64,000 bases of DNA from an uncultured archaeon (GCA_938045545.1 CALIBN010000012.1:64001-128000), one strand, 5' to 3'; counted from the stretch's first letter, positions 970 through 62,259 are shown. Notes: a model not told the origin generated them from the sequence alone. Made by a program: numbers and translations.

Positions 970-1902
970 ATGAGCCTCCCAACAGATGAGCTGCAGAGAT
1001 GGGCATGTCCCCAGTGCGGCTCCAAGAAAATAGTAGAGGATAAAAGGTCTGGGGAAATCTACTGTTCAGAATGCGGCTTCGTACTCGTGCAAAAGCTGCT
1101 TGATGAAACAAAAGAATGGAGAGAATTCGGAGACGAGGAGTCTGAAAAAAGAGACAGAGTAGGAAGCCCCCTGTCATCAACAATATACGACTACGGTCTC
1201 TCAACCACGCTTGAAACAGGAATCAAGGACGCAACCGGCAAGGTTCTTTCCGAGAAAGCAATGGCAGAAGCACAGAAGCTTAGACTGTGGCAGCAGAGAA
1301 ACAGAGCATACAACTCGGCGGAGAGAAACCTGCAGGTCGCGAGCAAAGTAATCTCGCAAATAGCAGACCAGCTTAAAGCACCCAAAGCAACATACGTGAG
1401 GGCAGTCCAAATCTACCGTGACGCACTTGAAAGAGGCCTCGTGAGAGGAAGGCCGATAAACAGCCTCGCGGCAGCAGCACTATATGCCGCATGCAGAGAC
1501 AGCGGAATACCAAGAACATTGAAAGAGGTTGCAAACGCTTCAGGACTCAAAAGAAAAGAAGTAGCAAGAAGCTACAGACTACTAATCAGATCATTAGAAA
1601 GCAAAATGCCACTGAGTGACCCAGCAATATACGTCGAAAAAGTCGCAAGCAAACTCAAAGTCGGACCAGAAGTAGAAAGAGAAACATTGAAAATTTTAAA
1701 AGAAGCAAAAGATAAAAAGATTACGGCTGGCAAGGATCCCCTTGGGATGGTCGCCGCAGCCATGTATCTTGCTACGCAGAGGCTTGGTTTACAGTTGTTC
1801 ACTCAGAAGCAGATTGCTGAGGCGAGCAACGTTACTGAGGTCACTGTGAGGAACAGGTATAAGGGTCTGCGTGAAGCATTGGAAGGAATTAAAGAAGTAT
1901 AA
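970..1902 (+). CDS. tfb: Transcription initiation factor IIB
   Basis: Zn ribbon CPQC..CSECG, EWREF, LVRGR, PRTLKEVA, AGKDP, VTEVTVRNRYK. Confidence 0.98.
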   Translation: MSLPTDELQRWACPQCGSKKIVEDKRSGEIYCSECGFVLVQKLLDETKEWREFGDEESEKRDRVGSPLSSTIYDYGLSTTLETGIKDATGKVLSEKAMAEAQKLRLWQQRNRAYNSAERNLQVASKVISQIADQLKAPKATYVRAVQIYRDALERGLVRGRPINSLAAAALYAACRDSGIPRTLKEVANASGLKRKEVARSYRLLIRSLESKMPLSDPAIYVEKVASKLKVGPEVERETLKILKEAKDKKITAGKDPLGMVAAAMYLATQRLGLQLFTQKQIAEASNVTEVTVRNRYKGLREALEGIKEV

Positions 1903-2089
1903 TCTTATTTAAAACTTTTTTTAATTTATTTTTAATATCCTTACCGTTCTTGATTAATTTAAGTATCTTCAACTCTTAAAAGTTTATGAGCAGGACTAAT
2001 CAACTCCGAAAAACCACAAAGGCTTAAGCGCGCTAGTTATGGAGATATGGATATGAAAGTCAGTAGGAGGAAGAAAGAGATTGTAGTAG

Positions 2090-2273
2090 GTGTTTTCAGA
2101 AGCCTTATACTGATGCCTCTGAAAGAAGAAATGCTTGGAGACTTGACAACGCTCTTCCTAACCCTTAAAGAAGCAGCAAATCCTCTTGACATCTTGCTTC
2201 AACATAAGATGCTCCAAGCTTCAACGCCTCTTCTAAAGCCTAAGAGCAGGATTTAGACGTGCTACTTATCCAT
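2090..2273 (-). pseudogene. TldD/PmbA family N-terminal fragment
   Basis: Minus-strand frames read ALEEALKLGASYVEARCQ then LRVRKSVVKSPSISSFRGISIRLL, broken by stops and frameshifts. Confidence 0.55.
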
Positions 2274-2601
2274 CTCCCCAGTTTTATTTAAAATCGGATG
2301 AGACTCAAAAATTACTTGAAACAAGCACATCTCTTCTAATGATTCGAATCGAAAAACTATCTAATTTAGACAAACCTATATGGTTTCCCCAAGGTATTCT
2401 TGAGACACCCGGAGGATGATGAGGTTTTTAACCGCGTAACGAATCTATCGAGAGAAGCCGTTAAACATCTATACTTGCTAAGAATAAAGGGTATTTACGG
2501 CTTGGTTAAGGCTCTAGCATTCTTCAAATGCTTAGGCTCAATCCAGCTTCCGGAAGTGGATTTAACTTCTATTCCGAATTGTTTATTATTCACGAGGACC
2601 A

Positions 2602-4590
2602 CTATGTCAACTTCAGTTTTATGAAGCCTAGCTTAAAGGCTGGCGAGGCTGGCTTTAAGCAGAAATCATCCTCATCGGGTGCGTTAAACAACGGATCTGC
2701 AATAAGAGAGTTCCTATCCATTCCCAGTTCCCGCCATTCTTCCCACGAGAATTTTCCGAAGAGGATTTCGCCACCTCCTTCCCTCCAATACAGGTTATGG
2801 TCGAAAACAAATCCAAGATCATCTATGTTACCCGCCAGCAAGCTGCCCTCTCGCCAGTAGACGATGTTACGCTCAAAGATGAAACTGACGTGCTGCTCCG
2901 GACGTGTACGCTGAATCTGTGCATCCCGTCCGAAAGCAAAGATGTTGTTGCGGATAATGTTTTCCCTACCGTAATGCTGGTGGAATCCCCCATGAGTTGT
3001 ACGGTAGACGATGTTTCCCTCGGCAATAATGTTGGTGCTCCCCTCGTCGAAATAAATCCCCCAGCCTCCGTAGCGGAGACCTGCGACATCATGAATCCGA
3101 TTTAATCTGATGACTGTTCCCGGTTGAACCCCCAGTGTGTAAACCCCACCCATGTCGCTTAAGATTGGCCCTTCCCCATTCGATAGGACACCGATGTGGT
3201 GAATATGGTTTGATTCAACTGTATTCCCCATTGCAATTGATCTTCCGTAGCCCCAGGTCCAGCCGATGGAAACACCCGTGTAGTAGAAATCATGAATATG
3301 ATTATGAATAATGCGGTTGTTATAACTCTGTCCAATATATATCGCGACAGCACTGTGAAAGAAACGCCCTCCCCCGTGTATGTGGCAATCAATAACCTCA
3401 TTGCCGTAGGTTTGCTCGCTTTCAGATTCACGGATCAGGGTTTCCCCTATTTTAACACCTCCAGCCCCCAGGTCGAAAAACTCACATCCGACGATACGGT
3501 TATTCTGGCAGCCGCGTGCCAGCTCTAAAGCATAGTTTCCAAGATGAGTAAAAGTGCATTCTTCGAAGATACAGTTGCGGACTCCTTCCCCGTAAACAGA
3601 TCCAGGCACGCCTATGGCTGCCTGGGGGAACCCTCCAACGCTGGAGCCCTCTGGAAAATACCATTCAGTATGGGAAAATGTTAAGCCTTGGAAAAACAGG
3701 TTTTCAACAAACATGCCTTCCTCGGGCTTGCCCTCAAATCGGATGAGTTCGCTGATCACTGGTACTACAGCCTCCGCGTTAGACGGCTCCTCGCCAGGAA
3801 ACGGAATATAGTGAAGCATCGCGGTCTTAGGGTCTAGAAACCATTCTCCCTGAGAATCAAGCAGCTCGTAAACATTCTCCACATAATATAGGTCACCAGG
3901 GTCCAGACGGAAAACGCTTCTTTTACTGGAGCACACCATATGCTCCTCCTCTTTCACACCGGCTATTGGCAGGCGTGATTCAACCCAACGGTTCATAACC
4001 ACGATCTCCCCCGCGTCCACAGTGCTCCAAGCCTTAAGGTCTCCATCAAAGAATCGGAAGCAGTTTTGCCCTTCATCCCATTTTGTTTCAGGAGTTACGC
4101 CTGGAGCCTCTGCTACTTTAAAGTAGCCCCTGTTAGGGCTGCGGGCGCGAATGCAAGGGTGCCCGTTGACCCAGAGGTGTCGAAAGAACTGTTTGCCTCC
4201 AAATGTTTCAGGAACCCTTGCCACCCACAGCTTCCTTCCATCTACAACAGTTTGCTCCCAACCCGTTAATAATCTTCCACCGCTGATAACCGGTTTCTCA
4301 CCGGGATATGCTGCGAAGCATATTGGATGGTTGAGGGTTCCAGAATCCTCAGGTTTGAAGACCAGAGGATCAGCCAAAAAGTAGATGCCGCCGCGAACCA
4401 GAACGGTGACAGGCTGCCTAAGCGTTCCTCCCTGCTGATGCTTCAACTCGCGAATCGATTCCAAGGCACGATGAAGCGTGGCAAGAGGCCCGTCTGTTTT
4501 AAACTGGTTTGGCGTAGGCGTCTTTCCCGACCAAGAATCACTACCGTTAGGAGCGACATGGATAAAGACGGCGTCTCCACCGCTATTCAT
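2602..4590 (-). CDS. Right-handed parallel beta-helix protein (GH141-like/pectin-lyase fold)
   Basis: APNGSDSWSG..DGPLATL, VRGGIY, repeated NxIH beta-helix turns, SDMGGVY, WGIYFDEGS. Confidence 0.85.
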   Translation of the reverse strand: MNSGGDAVFIHVAPNGSDSWSGKTPTPNQFKTDGPLATLHRALESIRELKHQQGGTLRQPVTVLVRGGIYFLADPLVFKPEDSGTLNHPICFAAYPGEKPVISGGRLLTGWEQTVVDGRKLWVARVPETFGGKQFFRHLWVNGHPCIRARSPNRGYFKVAEAPGVTPETKWDEGQNCFRFFDGDLKAWSTVDAGEIVVMNRWVESRLPIAGVKEEEHMVCSSKRSVFRLDPGDLYYVENVYELLDSQGEWFLDPKTAMLHYIPFPGEEPSNAEAVVPVISELIRFEGKPEEGMFVENLFFQGLTFSHTEWYFPEGSSVGGFPQAAIGVPGSVYGEGVRNCIFEECTFTHLGNYALELARGCQNNRIVGCEFFDLGAGGVKIGETLIRESESEQTYGNEVIDCHIHGGGRFFHSAVAIYIGQSYNNRIIHNHIHDFYYTGVSIGWTWGYGRSIAMGNTVESNHIHHIGVLSNGEGPILSDMGGVYTLGVQPGTVIRLNRIHDVAGLRYGGWGIYFDEGSTNIIAEGNIVYRTTHGGFHQHYGRENIIRNNIFAFGRDAQIQRTRPEQHVSFIFERNIVYWREGSLLAGNIDDLGFVFDHNLYWREGGGEILFGKFSWEEWRELGMDRNSLIADPLFNAPDEDDFCLKPASPAFKLGFIKLKLT

Positions 4591-6877: not shown

Positions 6878-6900
6878 CCATATCGTCCTCCATGAATACA

Positions 6901-6953
6901 GGGTAGGAGCTATCAGCCTCGCTTGAGGCGGTTGGAGGAGAGCTCCATCTCCC
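6901..6953 (-). ncRNA. Fluoride riboswitch (crcB motif)
   Basis: Minus strand GGAGATGGAGCTCTCC-TCCAACC-GCCTCAAGCGAGGC-TGATAGCTCCTACC: P1 GGAGA/UCUCC, pseudoknot GGAGC/GCUCC, hairpin GCCUC/GAGGC, conserved GAUG, AACC and CCUAC. Confidence 0.92.
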
Positions 6954-7341
6954 AGCCGTCCTTGGGGGCGGCTGGCGAGTTTTCGACCAGCGGCTTTATT
7001 AACTTTTCTCCATCGCTATGTAAAGTATTTAGCCGACCTTTCCCCAACTCTCAACTAGCGAGTAGCAAGGCCAAGCCGGAAAACGAAGCCAAATACTCTG
7101 GCGCAGAGCACCGCTGTGGATAGACCGGCGTCAAGCTTTTTCAACCTCAAGCCGGTAGGAGCCTCACACTGCCGGCTGGTGGTGCTAGACTCAGGAGTTG
7201 AACATTAATCAGAATCAGTAATAAAGAAACACCTATTTCAGAGAAACTTTTTAAACCTCGTCTACACGTGGCGCCGGCAAGCATTGAGTGGAAAACCAGT
7301 TGAAGACACATGGCTAAACACGAGTAGCATGGTTAGGCAGG

Positions 7342-13467: not shown

Positions 13468-13558
13468 GGGCCGGTAGTTCAGTGGTAGAATACCCGCTTG
13501 GCGACCAGGAAAAAGGCCAGAATGCGGGGGGTCGTGGGTTCGAGTCCCACCCGGTCCA
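13468..13558 (+). tRNA. tRNA-Ala(GGC) with a 19-nt intron at 37/38 (13504-13522)
   Basis: Acceptor GGGCCGG/CCGGTCC with G3:U70; anticodon stem CCCGC/GCGGG; T-loop TTCGAGT; BHB with central helix UUGG/CCAG and bulges CGA and AAU; TATA-like CTTAAATA at 13436. Confidence 0.96.
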
Positions 13559-23379: not shown

Positions 23380-26325
23380 CTATCCTTTAACCACGCCTAG
23401 TGGCACTAGCCTAGCAACCTTAAGTGAAATCCCCGCTCTATCTGTGACCTCCACAACCTCGTCAGGATCCTTATACGCACCCGGTGCTTCTTCGGCAACA
23501 AGGTTCATGTCTGCAACCCTAAGGTAGACACCCCTTTCCTCAAGCATCCCCCTTATCTGCCTGCTCGTAAACCTCCGCATCGCCTCATGCCTGCTCAGCA
23601 TCCTTCCGGCACCATGCGCAGTCGAGCCGAAGCTTGCCTCCATCGCAGTCTCAGTCCCAACGAGAACCCAGCTTGCTGAGCCCATTGAACCGGGTATTAG
23701 AACCGGTTGGCCATACTCTCTATATTTTGAGGGGATATGACTGCTTCCGGGCGGGAAAGATCTAGTCGCGCCCTTCCTGTGGACGACAACCCTTTTCTTC
23801 TCCCCGTTAACCCTGTGGTCCTCAATCTTAGCGATGTTGTGTGCAACATCATACAGAATATTCAAGCCGAACTCGGAAGCATCCTTTTTGAAAACCTTCG
23901 CGAAGCTCTCCCTGACCCAGTGGGTGATAACCTGCCTGTTAAGGAAAGCATAGTTTACGGCGCAAGCCATAGCAGCAAAGTAGTCCCTGGCCTCGTGGCT
24001 CTCAACAGGAACGGCTGCTAGCTCCCTATCCGGCAACCAGATGTTATGCTTCCTGCTAGCCACCTCCATTGTTTTAAGATAATCTGAGCAAACCTGATGG
24101 CCGTATCCTCGACTTCCCGTATGTATTAATACCACGATCTGACCGGTTCTCTCGATTCCGAATCCTCTGGCCACTTCCCCGTCGATAATTCTCTCCACGT
24201 AATCTATTTCGAGAAAATGGTTTCCGCTTCCCAGGCTGCCCAACTGGGGAAGGCCACGCCTCTTAGCGGTGACGCTGACCCTGCTCGGGTCCGCTCCCCT
24301 TAGGCAGCCGTTCTCCTCGATGAATTCCGCGTCCTCCTTCCAGCCGTATCCCCGCTTAATAGCCCAATCGACGCCTTCTCTGACAGCACTATCCAGCTCG
24401 TCGAAGCTCATTCTAAGCTTGCCTTCAGAGCCAAGGCCTGAAGGTACATTATGGAATATCTCGTCGAGAAGCTCTCTCAGAACAGGCTTAACGTTGTCAA
24501 CATTCAGATTCGTCAGCAGGAGGCGTACGCCACAGTTTGAAACCACGAAGCCGTTGGCTATGAAATTATGAACGTCTTCTTTAACAGTAAAATCGTAAAC
24601 ATCTTCGTTGAACAGTAGTTCCTCCTTCTTAACAACCCTATCCCAGACGACGCCTGTTTTGCCGAGACCCTTCGTCACTGACTCTAGAAAATCCTCGAAG
24701 GAGGGGAGGTTTAACGGTGCTCTCGGAAGACTTTTCCTGCCCTCATATAGAGATCTTTCAATAAACCTTCTGTTCACGTATTCAGACTCCAGAGCTTCAT
24801 ATATAGTTACATTAGACGAGCCTCCGTTCTTCATAGCGATAGCTACCTGCTGTACGTTTTCTCTAGCTTTTATCACGCGCATCTTCAGCTTCAAGTAGTG
24901 GATGGCGACGTTTGCAAGATGCTTCTTCTCCCTGTTATACTCAAACCCTACTTTACTCCATAGTTTGACCAAATTTTTCGGAGAACCGGATATTATTAGG
25001 CGGAGCCTGGTTGAAACACCTTGTTTCCCTTTAACCGCTTCAGGCTCCATGGTTATTTTCTTAACTTTAACTCCGAATTCTCTTAAAAGGAGGGCGATTT
25101 GCTTAAGGAGCTTTACGCCGGCTTCCTCACGACCCTTTTTCTTGTTAAGGCACAGGACAGGCATATAGAAGTTAAATGGATTTGCTGTGACTGTTTTTGG
25201 CTTAGAAAGCTCTGCTCCGAAGAACGCGGCGAGGAAAAGCCTCTTCTGCCAGAGAGGAAGCCGGAATAGCCATTCAGGCAACGCATAGTTCTGCGAGGTC
25301 TTGTTTCCCAAGGGAACACCCATTGCAGCCATAAGCGAGATAAGGCTCCTTGAACAAACCTTAATGCTGTGCTCAATCGTTGTAAAATCATACTTGCCGT
25401 ATTTAGTTTCAACCCTGTGTCTTCTAGCTCTTGAATAGATTTTAGAAGGTTTGAAGCCTACGCGTAAAATATCACTCCCTATATCCTCTAAGTCCTCAGG
25501 CCCGGCGAAGAACCAAGCTGCATGACTCTTCTCGGTATACAGGAGCACGCCGTCACCGAGTATAAAGCCCATTAGCTTAAGCAGATATGGAAACTTACTG
25601 TTGTCGCTCCTCAATGGGAGAAGCCCTCTTTTCCTAAGTTCAGAGATCACTAGCTCTTTTCGGCCGGGAACCTTAAGACGCTTTATATCTTCCTCAGACA
25701 CTATAGTTATGGGCTCAGCACTTTCATACAATACTCCTTCAAAAGGGTAGACAGCCACATCCTCACATCCTATCTCGCTCAACGGCACCATCCCCCGACG
25801 TGTGAGGAAAGGATGGTCCTCCGTAGCTATTATCTCCCTGCCCGATTCTGTTTCAACCCTGAAAACCCTCCGGTTTGGACGAATCTTAATGAAACGCATT
25901 ATCTCAGTAGGTTTGACACCCTTCTCAAGACTAACGCACGTAACCCGTTCACTGTTCCAACTCTTTAAGAACCCCTTAATGGGAAGCCTATAGCCATGTT
26001 CGTGAAGAATCAGGCTGTCCCCGGATAGGCAGTTAATGTCGTAACCCACTCCACCGGGCGACACAACTCCATCTTTAACGTCGAAAGCACCGACTCCTCC
26101 TATTGGGAAACCGTATCCTTCGTGTCCGTCGGGGAGAATGATTGAACTCTTATATATTCCTGGAAGCGTTGCCACGTTTAAACCTTGTTCAACAGTCTTA
26201 TCCTGGGTCATTTTCTGCAAGAGTGTTTCGTTCGCGAAAATTTTAAGCGGCACCCGCATCCCCTTTTTAGCTCCCACATCTACTCGATACTCTACGTCTG
26301 AAACCTTTTCAAACCTGTAGCTCAT
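23380..26325 (-). CDS. rtcB: tRNA-splicing ligase RtcB precursor with intein
   Basis: PDGHEGYGFPIGG, GYDIN|CGVR, GSGNHF, HTGSRG, HRKGATR, HGAGR, EEAPGAYKD; 482 aa after intein removal. Confidence 0.97.
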   Translation of the reverse strand: MSYRFEKVSDVEYRVDVGAKKGMRVPLKIFANETLLQKMTQDKTVEQGLNVATLPGIYKSSIILPDGHEGYGFPIGGVGAFDVKDGVVSPGGVGYDINCLSGDSLILHEHGYRLPIKGFLKSWNSERVTCVSLEKGVKPTEIMRFIKIRPNRRVFRVETESGREIIATEDHPFLTRRGMVPLSEIGCEDVAVYPFEGVLYESAEPITIVSEEDIKRLKVPGRKELVISELRKRGLLPLRSDNSKFPYLLKLMGFILGDGVLLYTEKSHAAWFFAGPEDLEDIGSDILRVGFKPSKIYSRARRHRVETKYGKYDFTTIEHSIKVCSRSLISLMAAMGVPLGNKTSQNYALPEWLFRLPLWQKRLFLAAFFGAELSKPKTVTANPFNFYMPVLCLNKKKGREEAGVKLLKQIALLLREFGVKVKKITMEPEAVKGKQGVSTRLRLIISGSPKNLVKLWSKVGFEYNREKKHLANVAIHYLKLKMRVIKARENVQQVAIAMKNGGSSNVTIYEALESEYVNRRFIERSLYEGRKSLPRAPLNLPSFEDFLESVTKGLGKTGVVWDRVVKKEELLFNEDVYDFTVKEDVHNFIANGFVVSNCGVRLLLTNLNVDNVKPVLRELLDEIFHNVPSGLGSEGKLRMSFDELDSAVREGVDWAIKRGYGWKEDAEFIEENGCLRGADPSRVSVTAKRRGLPQLGSLGSGNHFLEIDYVERIIDGEVARGFGIERTGQIVVLIHTGSRGYGHQVCSDYLKTMEVASRKHNIWLPDRELAAVPVESHEARDYFAAMACAVNYAFLNRQVITHWVRESFAKVFKKDASEFGLNILYDVAHNIAKIEDHRVNGEKKRVVVHRKGATRSFPPGSSHIPSKYREYGQPVLIPGSMGSASWVLVGTETAMEASFGSTAHGAGRMLSRHEAMRRFTSRQIRGMLEERGVYLRVADMNLVAEEAPGAYKDPDEVVEVTDRAGISLKVARLVPLGVVKG
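24535..26031 (-). mobile_element. 499-aa intein with LAGLIDADG homing endonuclease in RtcB
   Basis: Block A CLSGDS, block B ATEDHPF, GFILGDG, block F VYDFTV, terminus FVVSN followed by extein Cys. Confidence 0.95.
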
Positions 26326-26330
26326 TTCTC

Positions 26331-26372
26331 GGGATCACCCTTTAGGGTTTCCAGATTTCCCCGGGTGACCCC
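26331..26372 (-). promoter_or_regulatory. rtcB 5' leader stem hiding the SD site, with BHB/BHL-like motif
   Basis: GGGGUCACCC-GGGG-AAA-UCUGGAAA-CCCU-AAA-GGGUGAUCCC ends 5 nt before the AUG; TATA-like TTTAATAA at 26424-26417. Confidence 0.6.
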
Positions 26373-26741
26373 CAGGGACTCAACCTTAAAACTATGGTCT
26401 TCTTCTGCTTCTGGGATTATTAAAGTTTTCTACCAAGTCTTGCTGTAGGCTTCCTTGGCCTTTGGAATTCTTAATCTTTAGGTTGAGTTGTGAAAGATAG
26501 AAGTGCAGGAGAGTAGGAAACACCGGTCGTTGGGGCAAGATATATTTTAAGCCTTTTGGCATTTCTAGATTGCGAGCAGTTCAAACGAAATAAAAGGGTG
26601 ATTAAGTTTGAAAGACTTCAACTTTAATAGTAGCCTAGGTGTTTCGTAACCGTAAGCATGCTGAAAATGCGATGCGAAGCACCAGCCAAAAAATCCTTGC
26701 CAATTTCATCAATGCAGCCTAACAAAAACACGAAAGAAAAA

Positions 26742-61934: not shown

Positions 61935-62259
61935 GCCGCCGGATACGTAACGCTTAATACCGTCTTGAAAAAGGCATGAACAGGGTAGACCAGGCTCCTG
62001 CCGAGCGGGAAACCCTGAAGCAGGCCTCAACATCTTGAGGAGGGTACAAGCCGCCTTGACCATGGGGATTGGGCTCGAAACCCGTGGAGAGGTTGAAGCA
62101 GCCTTCCCAAGGTGTTGCGGAGTAAAAGCATCCTCCCCAGGCTTGTTGAAAAGCGGATTGGGGAGATGAACCTACTAGCCTGGGCCCAAAGCCGGATGCA
62201 GTAAAGCACGCTTGGAGAAAAAGGCAAGCCTTATTAAAGGGACTGTGTGAAACAAGCTA

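Follow-up and report, generated by a model that had tools for sequence, protein, structure and literature searches.

A conserved hairpin over the Shine-Dalgarno site of rtcB in an uncultured archaeal genus: a candidate target of EndA and RtcB in the ligase's own message

Introduction

The rtcB gene of an uncultured archaeon is preceded by a short hairpin that covers the ribosome-binding site and, at the same time, has the look of the motifs that EndA recognizes. This raises the question of whether the message of the ligase RtcB is itself a substrate of the splicing machinery, being cut by EndA and resealed by its own product, or whether the likeness is the by-product of a different kind of control. 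The genome has a heavy need for both enzymes, with introns in many of its tRNA genes and in its cbf5 mRNA. Here, we describe the leader as it appears in the window, i.e., the whole stretch of 64,000 nucleotides that was analysed, which belongs to an assembly of 2.03 Mb in 51 contigs, and compare it with its counterparts in related genomes and metagenomes. The comparison identifies a real and new cis-regulatory leader before rtcB. In a search of mainly open-access literature, no BHB or BHL motif was found tied to an rtcB leader, to its autoregulation or to the masking of a Shine-Dalgarno (SD) site.

The rtcB gene, its promoter and the leader hairpin

The coordinates of the features discussed below are collected in Table 1. 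The rtcB gene of the window carries an intein, which is also found in some relatives (proteins of 984-985 aa), and other species of the genus have an intein-free protein of 485 aa behind the same leader. Upstream of the leader, a purine-rich run followed by a T/A-rich octamer, resembling a BRE/TATA element, stands out among diverging flanks in the 15 genus loci, with a mean identity of 75% compared with 45% downstream of it. Taking the usual archaeal spacing, transcription would start near 26395, and the conserved element at 26430-26417 thus places the whole hairpin inside the 5' untranslated region. A previous reading of the window, made from the sequence alone and called here the sequence-only reading, had cautioned that a second TATA-like site at 26391-26386 would start transcription inside the stem; the exact hexamer is limited to 7 of the 15 loci, and the site was therefore rejected as the main promoter. 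The promoter region is also overlapped by an open reading frame of 56 aa (26392-26562, minus strand), which has no Pfam match. Its conservation is limited to the three closest genomes, and it probably does not represent a gene.

Table 1. Features of the rtcB locus and the comparison tRNA gene, in window coordinates
Feature	Position	Strand	Remarks
BRE/TATA-like element, GAAAAC + TTTAATAA	26417..26430	minus	Aligned position in 15/15 genus loci
Upstream partner UCCCUGGG	26371..26378	minus	5' strand of alternative 8-bp hairpin with 26365-26358
BHL hairpin before rtcB	26372-26331	minus	MFE fold and RNAalifold consensus agree
Outer stem, 5' arm GGGGUCACCC	26363..26372	minus	16S 3' end-like; each of the 10 pairs present in every sequence
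Central 4-bp helix, 5' strand GGGG	26359..26362	minus	Length invariant in all variants
Apical loop, 11 nt	26348..26358	minus	9-14 nt among variants; 51% identity
Predicted excised segment, 15 nt	26342..26356	minus	Predicted by the BHB/BHL rule
Central helix, 3' strand CCCU	26344..26347	minus	CCUC/CCCC in relatives; pairing with GGGG kept in all variants
3-nt bulge AAA on the 3' strand	26341..26343	minus	AGA/AUA in relatives
Outer stem, 3' arm, extended SD site GGGUGAUCCC	26331..26340	minus	100% identity in 15 loci
Spacer GAGAA between hairpin and ATG	26330-26326	minus	5 nt
rtcB start codon ATG	26325-26323	minus	
rtcB coding sequence, 981 aa with intein	23380..26325	minus	Pfam RtcB 2.6e-164; Intein_splicing 7.4e-18
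tRNA-Ala(GGC), 19-nt intron	13468..13558	plus	Comparison substrate in the window

The outer stem of the hairpin comprises 10 bp, including one G-U pair (26372-26363 with 26340-26331). Its 3' arm contains GGUGAUCC, an 8-nt match to the complement of the 3' end of this genome's 16S rRNA, and the extended SD site GGGUGAUCCC is complementary to the 16S 3' end GGATCACC; the ribosome-binding site is therefore sequestered by the outer stem, and the 5' arm GGGGUCACCC reads as a cis-acting anti-SD. The proposal that a 10-bp outer stem buries the SD site was thus reproduced, both by the MFE fold of the window sequence and by the consensus fold.

According to its folds, the motif is a relaxed BHL (hBH-L) and not a strict BHB. 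The central helix is exactly 4 bp long in all 17 distinct variants described below, in the MFE and the consensus folds alike (in one of them, L014, an extra A-U pair could lengthen it to 5 bp), a single 3-nt bulge lies beside an outer helix of 10 bp, where 2 bp would be enough, and the other cut site falls in the loop. Past the first three loop bases, one or two pairs at most are possible in the loops of the 17 variants, and these are not conserved, so that the strict hBHBh' layout is absent. The sequence-only reading had described two staggered AAA bulges around the 4-bp helix, with a 1-bp inner helix, and had likened the whole to the BHB of the tRNA-Ala of the window. However, the AAA on the 3' side is the single true bulge, and that on the 5' side makes up the first three bases of the loop. 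The assignment as a BHB/BHL-like motif consequently stands for BHL and falls for strict BHB, as the inner helix is not conserved. As regards the tRNA-Ala, in which the anticodon stem is followed by a 4-bp helix, by a loop or a short inner helix, by a 3-nt bulge and by the stem, the order of stem, 4-bp helix and 3-nt bulge is shared. The dominant fold of the leader is built like the anticodon arm of a pre-tRNA with a canonical mini-intron.

Conservation inside the genus

The leader is present in 14 of the 16 other species of the genus. Both leader-less species, whose genomes are 70% and 82% complete, also lack any RtcB match, so that the leader accompanies rtcB in 15 of the 15 genus genomes that have the gene. 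A pattern scan of metagenomes, in which stems and helix were fixed by the pattern and the bulge and the loop were allowed to range over 1-6 nt and 6-18 nt, respectively, added 16 contigs, all 16 with a 3-nt bulge and all followed by an rtcB start. With L200 and L206 truncated by the ends of their contigs, 29 of the 31 loci remained for parsing, and these represent the 17 distinct variants, among which the loop measures 9-14 nt and varies in sequence, the bulge, A(A/G/U)A, is always 3 nt, and the helix is always 4 bp.

The mean pairwise identities among the 15 genome loci follow the same division, with 100% in the SD arm, 94% in the 5' arm plus helix and 93% in the CCCU strand, compared with 51% in the loop, 45% in the upstream spacer and 54% in the third codon positions of rtcB. 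Each of the 196 pair cells is paired, and none of the five substitutions (G-U to A-U, C-G to U-G, G-U to G-C) breaks a pair. No pair is changed on both sides in the alignment of relatives (RNAalifold), i.e., it contains no double-compensatory changes, and a shuffle control for covariation (500/500) did not separate the structure from the shuffles. The structure is thus backed by selective constraint and by the pattern of indels, and not by classical covariation; with no double-compensatory change and no discrimination in the shuffle control, the near-invariant sequence could equally mean a protein-binding site. The sequence-only reading had suggested looking for covariation across related rtcB leaders, and the outcome is a divided one: stem, 4-bp helix and 3-nt bulge proved to be conserved, and the double-compensatory changes did not appear. 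Each genome carries a single copy of the element, a covariance model built from the relatives scoring 79.9 bits at the rtcB of the window and 14.2 bits at its next match.

The leader exceeds chance in its context, not on its single sequence alone. As a single sequence, the 85-nt fold is unexceptional (z = -1.62; 12 of 200 shuffles at least as stable), and the bare BHL geometry is about equally frequent in the genome (876 matches) and in a reversed-sequence control (830 matches). In terms of stability, the leader ranks first among 762 crudely called ORF starts preceded by an SD site (-27.3 kcal/mol, with a mean of -11.5 and a standard deviation of 4.4). A genome scan that required 7 bp or more in the outer stem, a 4-bp helix that could not be extended, a 3-nt bulge and 6-20 nt in the loop gave four real matches and none in the control at -20 kcal/mol or below, and, among the matches in which the BHL is the MFE fold, the best two are the rtcB leader (-22.3 kcal/mol) and the cbf5 intron (-21.7 kcal/mol).

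Distribution outside the genus

Beyond the genus, the covariance model located the element in none of nine genomes from the other three families of the class, and a sample of 151 genomes of the phylum yielded only three weak matches outside the genus, of 17.5-22 bits (G046, G034 and G140), the first two of which sit on contigs other than that of rtcB. A strict descriptor of a BHL over an SD site recovered 8 of 8 genus loci and, in the same set, none of 75 rtcB leaders from outside the genus (26 plus 49, the latter examined by a coordinate-based descriptor scan), most of these leaders being short. A loose hairpin pattern run against genome contigs returned, among the matches listed, only chance matches in GC-rich bacteria. 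By these searches, the element is confined to one genus, which counts against its being a splicing substrate.

One relative is G022, from a sister family in the same order, whose rtcB leader (L061) folds into a different 10-bp SD-masking hairpin preceded by AGA. This hairpin may be a diverged homologue of the rtcB element. In this leader, a BHL-like fold, with a helix of 3 bp, comes out 0.9 kcal/mol less stable than the MFE fold, so that the case was not taken as support and stands as no more than a hint.

Splicing enzymes and substrates of the host

Two EndA paralogues are encoded in the genome, on contigs C40 and C42, according to Pfam. The one of 187 aa can be aligned with the catalytic alpha subunit of Aeropyrum pernix EndA with no gap, also in the crenarchaeal-specific loop, where the equivalent of Lys44 is present, and Tyr/His/Lys are retained. 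The other, of 200 aa, has a Pro at the position of the catalytic His and is therefore a structural beta subunit. From these alignments, the EndA of the host is of the (alpha-beta)2 crenarchaeal type with the loop lysine, and thus belongs to the enzymes that accept BHL motifs, which are either (alpha-beta)2 or epsilon2 with a loop lysine (PMC3241643). The gene of the beta subunit (L037, contig C42, 1207-1809) overlaps that of histidyl-tRNA synthetase (1806-3101) by 4 nt, an arrangement that parallels the endA-trpS1 operon described in Haloferax volcanii.

What such an enzyme can do is illustrated by the (alpha-beta)2 EndA of A. pernix, which, as reported in PMC3241643, excises in vitro a BHL intron from a mini-helix mimicking the anticodon arm alone, and needs its loop lysine for the cut in the loop. 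The same source assigns the cbf5 intron to the BHL type. It also describes BHL motifs as being cut more slowly than BHB motifs in vitro, which counts against cleavage of the leader, and mentions a group that obtained little cutting of the BHL of A. pernix cbf5 (PMC3241643).

The host has many substrates of its own. Introns were called by aragorn in 21 of 39 tRNA calls, a few of them spurious (kilobase "introns") and 17 under 60 nt. The cbf5 gene on contig C10 is split into two adjacent pieces that are out of frame, and the junction between them (C10:59563-59594) has an MFE fold that combines a stem with a 4-bp CCCU:GGGG helix, a loop of 9 nt and a bulge of 3 nt (AGA). Removal of 13 nt by the cutting rule applied to the leader restores a single cbf5 frame of 327 aa that passes through the conserved motif of the active site, where the intron lies. 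This element of 13 nt recurs in 15 of the 15 parsed cbf5 loci of the genus (L266-L280), a further locus, L281, giving no parse. Since the cbf5 frame needs the removal of these 13 nt, the genus must splice an mRNA BHL with a geometry like that of the leader, and the known cbf5 mRNA intron extends, by sequence, to this uncultured lineage.

The assembly also contains a second copy of cbf5 (C32:333-1325, on a contig of 2.6 kb) with a different intron of about 36 nt, as well as two 16S rRNA genes (C36:171-1653 and C16:29805-31302) with an identity of only 77.7%. A second archaeon, binned together with the host, is probably the source of the short contigs C36 and C32. The G+C content of the 16S genes is 62% and, as the G+C content of rRNA correlates with growth temperature, this suggests that the host is a thermophile.

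A conserved upstream partner and two mutually exclusive folds

The sequence-only reading had overlooked the role of the octamer UCCCUGGG, which opens the alternative hairpin of Table 1. This second hairpin takes up three bases of the outer stem, the whole GGGG strand and the first base of the loop, and its energy goes from -16.2 kcal/mol at 37 °C to -6.8 kcal/mol at 75 °C. It is predicted, with 7-9 bp, in all 17 distinct variants, and the CCCUG within UCCCUGGG is invariant (100% identity in the 15 genome loci). At 37 °C, the SD-locking fold has an advantage of no more than 0.5-6.7 kcal/mol among the 17 variants and of 1.9 kcal/mol in the window; in L004, the alternative fold is the MFE. The leader thus combines an SD site held in a stable helix with a conserved fold that excludes it, which defines an SD-sequestering bistable platform, and the intact rtcB leader is, in these models, bistable. 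In addition to making the leader bistable, UCCCUGGG would free the 5' fragment after a cut. In the second state, the bulge together with U44 could form the tetraloop of another small hairpin, which gives the fixed length of the bulge a second possible rationale.

A splicing-based feedback loop as a candidate mechanism

The mechanism that we propose as the most likely one combines these elements into a loop whose steps, from cleavage of the leader and release of the fragment to translation of a message with a 5'-OH end, resealing and the direction of control, we infer as follows. The (alpha-beta)2 EndA would recognize the BHL and cut it after the second loop base (26357|26356) and after the second bulge base (26342|26341). 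Once cut off, the 5' fragment would fold on itself, forming its conserved 8-bp hairpin, and would release the 3' fragment, which would start one base before a ribosome-binding site that is now free, and could be translated. RtcB, in turn, would reseal the two exons into a 10-bp hairpin with a 7-nt loop, in which the SD site is masked again, and thus more ligase activity would mean a smaller fraction of open messages.

The excision of 15 nt between 26356 and 26342, as had already been predicted, agrees with the analysis in that the same rule restores the cbf5 frame. The predicted excised segments of the relatives measure 13-18 nt, and the cbf5 intron and small tRNA introns of the genome 13-19 nt. 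After the cut, the 5' exon would end one base beyond the alternative hairpin. The net association of the cut halves is predicted at only -4.5 kcal/mol at 75 °C, which corresponds to a millimolar Kd, and this weak association, along with the self-folding of the 5' exon (-6.8 kcal/mol), is the reason why the 3' fragment would be released. Contrary to what had been proposed, resealing would not give a tighter hairpin, the predicted stability at 75 °C being slightly lower after it (-9.2 kcal/mol) than in the unspliced form (-10.9 kcal/mol). The SD site is masked in the unspliced and the resealed forms alike, which counts against the splicing reading.

With these points on both sides, we regard the processing of the rtcB leader by EndA as an evenly balanced proposition. 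The complete circuit, in which the leader would act as a decoy of the anticodon arm of a pre-tRNA, the cut by EndA would open the message as the 5' exon ejects the SD fragment, RtcB would close it, and the synthesis of ligase would track the amount of unligated ends, is a tentative and, taken as a whole, somewhat unlikely proposal. The data agree just as well with complete splicing having an activating role, as has been suggested for HVO_1309 (see below).

Alternative explanations

Even though the leader has the geometry of a BHL, it could work as a bistable switch without any cleavage, with the SD-locking hairpin on one side and UCCCUGGG capturing the 5' arm on the other, and with the likeness to a BHL being incidental or serving for binding only. 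The state of such a switch would be set by the kinetics of co-transcriptional folding, by a protein (possibly RtcB, archease or a non-cutting EndA) or by an RNA acting in trans. The small energy gap between the states and the invariance of the upstream partner, described above, speak for this explanation, and so does the order of transcription, since the alternative hairpin is transcribed first and can form ahead of the SD arm. A near-invariant sequence without covariation would also suit overlapping pairing constraints or a protein site, and the tetraloop that the bulge can form in the second state belongs to the same picture. However, the 3' hairpin of this second state is not predicted in L008, L010, L014 and L201 and, as it is missing in several variants, the conserved CCYY strand and the fixed 3-nt bulge are best explained by the BHL. 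Besides, EndA must cut the equivalent BHL of cbf5 in the same cell, so that it would be expected to see the leader as well, and no ligand-type family matches it: in Rfam 15, there is no match at the gathering score, and the best match in E-value mode, with 15.7 bits and E = 0.88, is far below the cut-off. We thus hold a cleavage-independent switch to be a real possibility, albeit one that falls short of being probable. An RNA thermometer was not favoured, given that the gap between the two states of the window sequence is nearly constant from 37 to 85 °C.

A simpler explanation would be that of a plain structural leader, i.e., a 5' hairpin of a thermophile that damps translation or protects the end of the mRNA, with its bulge and helix kept by mere descent. 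Its stability at high temperature (still -8.7 kcal/mol at 75 °C), its restriction to one genus and the different 10-bp SD-masking hairpin of G022, which has no clean BHL, would all fit such a clamp. Nevertheless, descent would hardly preserve bulge and helix where neutral sites are saturated, as the flanks, the loop and the third codon positions are (45-54% identity), and the indels are restricted to the loop and never affect the bulge or the helix. Moreover, a simple clamp would have no use for the conserved upstream partner, and the first rank among 762 SD contexts argues for a specific control, all of which makes the plain leader improbable. Two other candidates were rejected on structural grounds. 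K-turns consist of a 3-nt bulge followed by tandem sheared G-A and A-G pairs; here, Watson-Crick G-C pairs flank the bulge on both sides and there is no GA/AG tandem, which discards a kink-turn or K-loop as a site for L7Ae. As for an intrinsic terminator or attenuator, the hairpin leads directly into GAGAA and the ATG, and a U-run is absent.

Relation to known systems

The splicing-based loop proposed for rtcB would have partial precedents in bacteria and eukaryotes. In Escherichia coli thrS, an mRNA leader beside the ribosome site mimics the anticodon arm of the tRNA that is the substrate of the enzyme, leading to autoregulation. The rtcB leader would likewise be a substrate mimic next to a ribosome site; unlike the proposed circuit, that of thrS is bacterial and works by binding only, with no cleavage or ligation. 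In the case of HAC1/XBP1, a structure-specific endonuclease switches translation, its cuts leaving 2',3'-cyclic phosphate and 5'-OH ends for a tRNA ligase to seal. A message switched by an endonuclease cut and by sealing with a tRNA ligase is what is proposed here for the leader. However, HAC1/XBP1 is a eukaryotic system with another nuclease and other stem-loops, where ligation activates and the ligase is not the regulated gene. This unconventional mRNA splicing by IRE1 and a tRNA ligase is mentioned in PMC5824351 and PMC8718801.

Among archaea, the closest case is the intron of the crenarchaeal cbf5 pre-mRNA (Watanabe 2002; Yokobori 2009; PMC2738675, PMC3241643). Like the leader, it is a relaxed BHB/BHL in a protein-coding transcript; the cbf5 motif is cut by EndA (PMC2738675, PMC3241643). 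The cbf5 intron of the genus shares the layout of the leader, with an outer stem, a 4-bp helix, a 9-nt loop, a 3-nt A(G/A)A bulge and 13 nt removed. However, it lies within the coding sequence, where its removal is obligatory for the frame, whereas the rtcB element is placed in the 5' untranslated region over the ribosome site, causes no change in the protein, has a self-folding 5' exon and belongs to the ligase's own mRNA.

The second archaeal case, and a precedent for an EndA target in a leader, is HVO_1309 of Haloferax volcanii, where EndA excises a canonical BHB of 46 nt from a 5' untranslated region of 192 nt (Schwarz et al. 2020, PMC7714728). According to the same report, the excision was confirmed in vitro and the expression falls upon depletion of EndA, which suggests a regulatory role (PMC7714728). 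Both are EndA-type segments in an mRNA leader, that of HVO_1309 being experimental and that of rtcB predicted. Contrary to the rtcB leader, HVO_1309 contains a canonical BHB in the gene of an M24 peptidase unrelated to splicing, and its description mentions neither masking of an SD site nor bistability.

If the loop proposed for rtcB operates, the chemistry of EndA and RtcB would serve as a regulatory switch on an mRNA, beyond its function in maturation, and the leader would be only the third class of EndA targets in mRNA, after cbf5 and HVO_1309. It would also represent a prokaryotic counterpart of the control of XBP1 by IRE1 and RtcB, as well as an enzymatic feedback loop based on substrate mimicry that dispenses with a dedicated regulator, the first such circuit described for archaeal RNA processing. 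Even without cleavage, the leader would be a compact and conserved bistable SD switch in an uncultured, thermophilic archaeal lineage.

Additional observations

There are two further hairpins in which the BHL is the MFE fold: one on contig C11 (708-749, minus strand, -18.9 kcal/mol), upstream of the promoter region of a methyltransferase-like gene, and one in the window at 62133-62165 (plus strand, -15.9 kcal/mol). The window also includes a fluoride riboswitch (crcB motif) at 6897-6961 on the minus strand, with 49.2 bits, above the gathering score.
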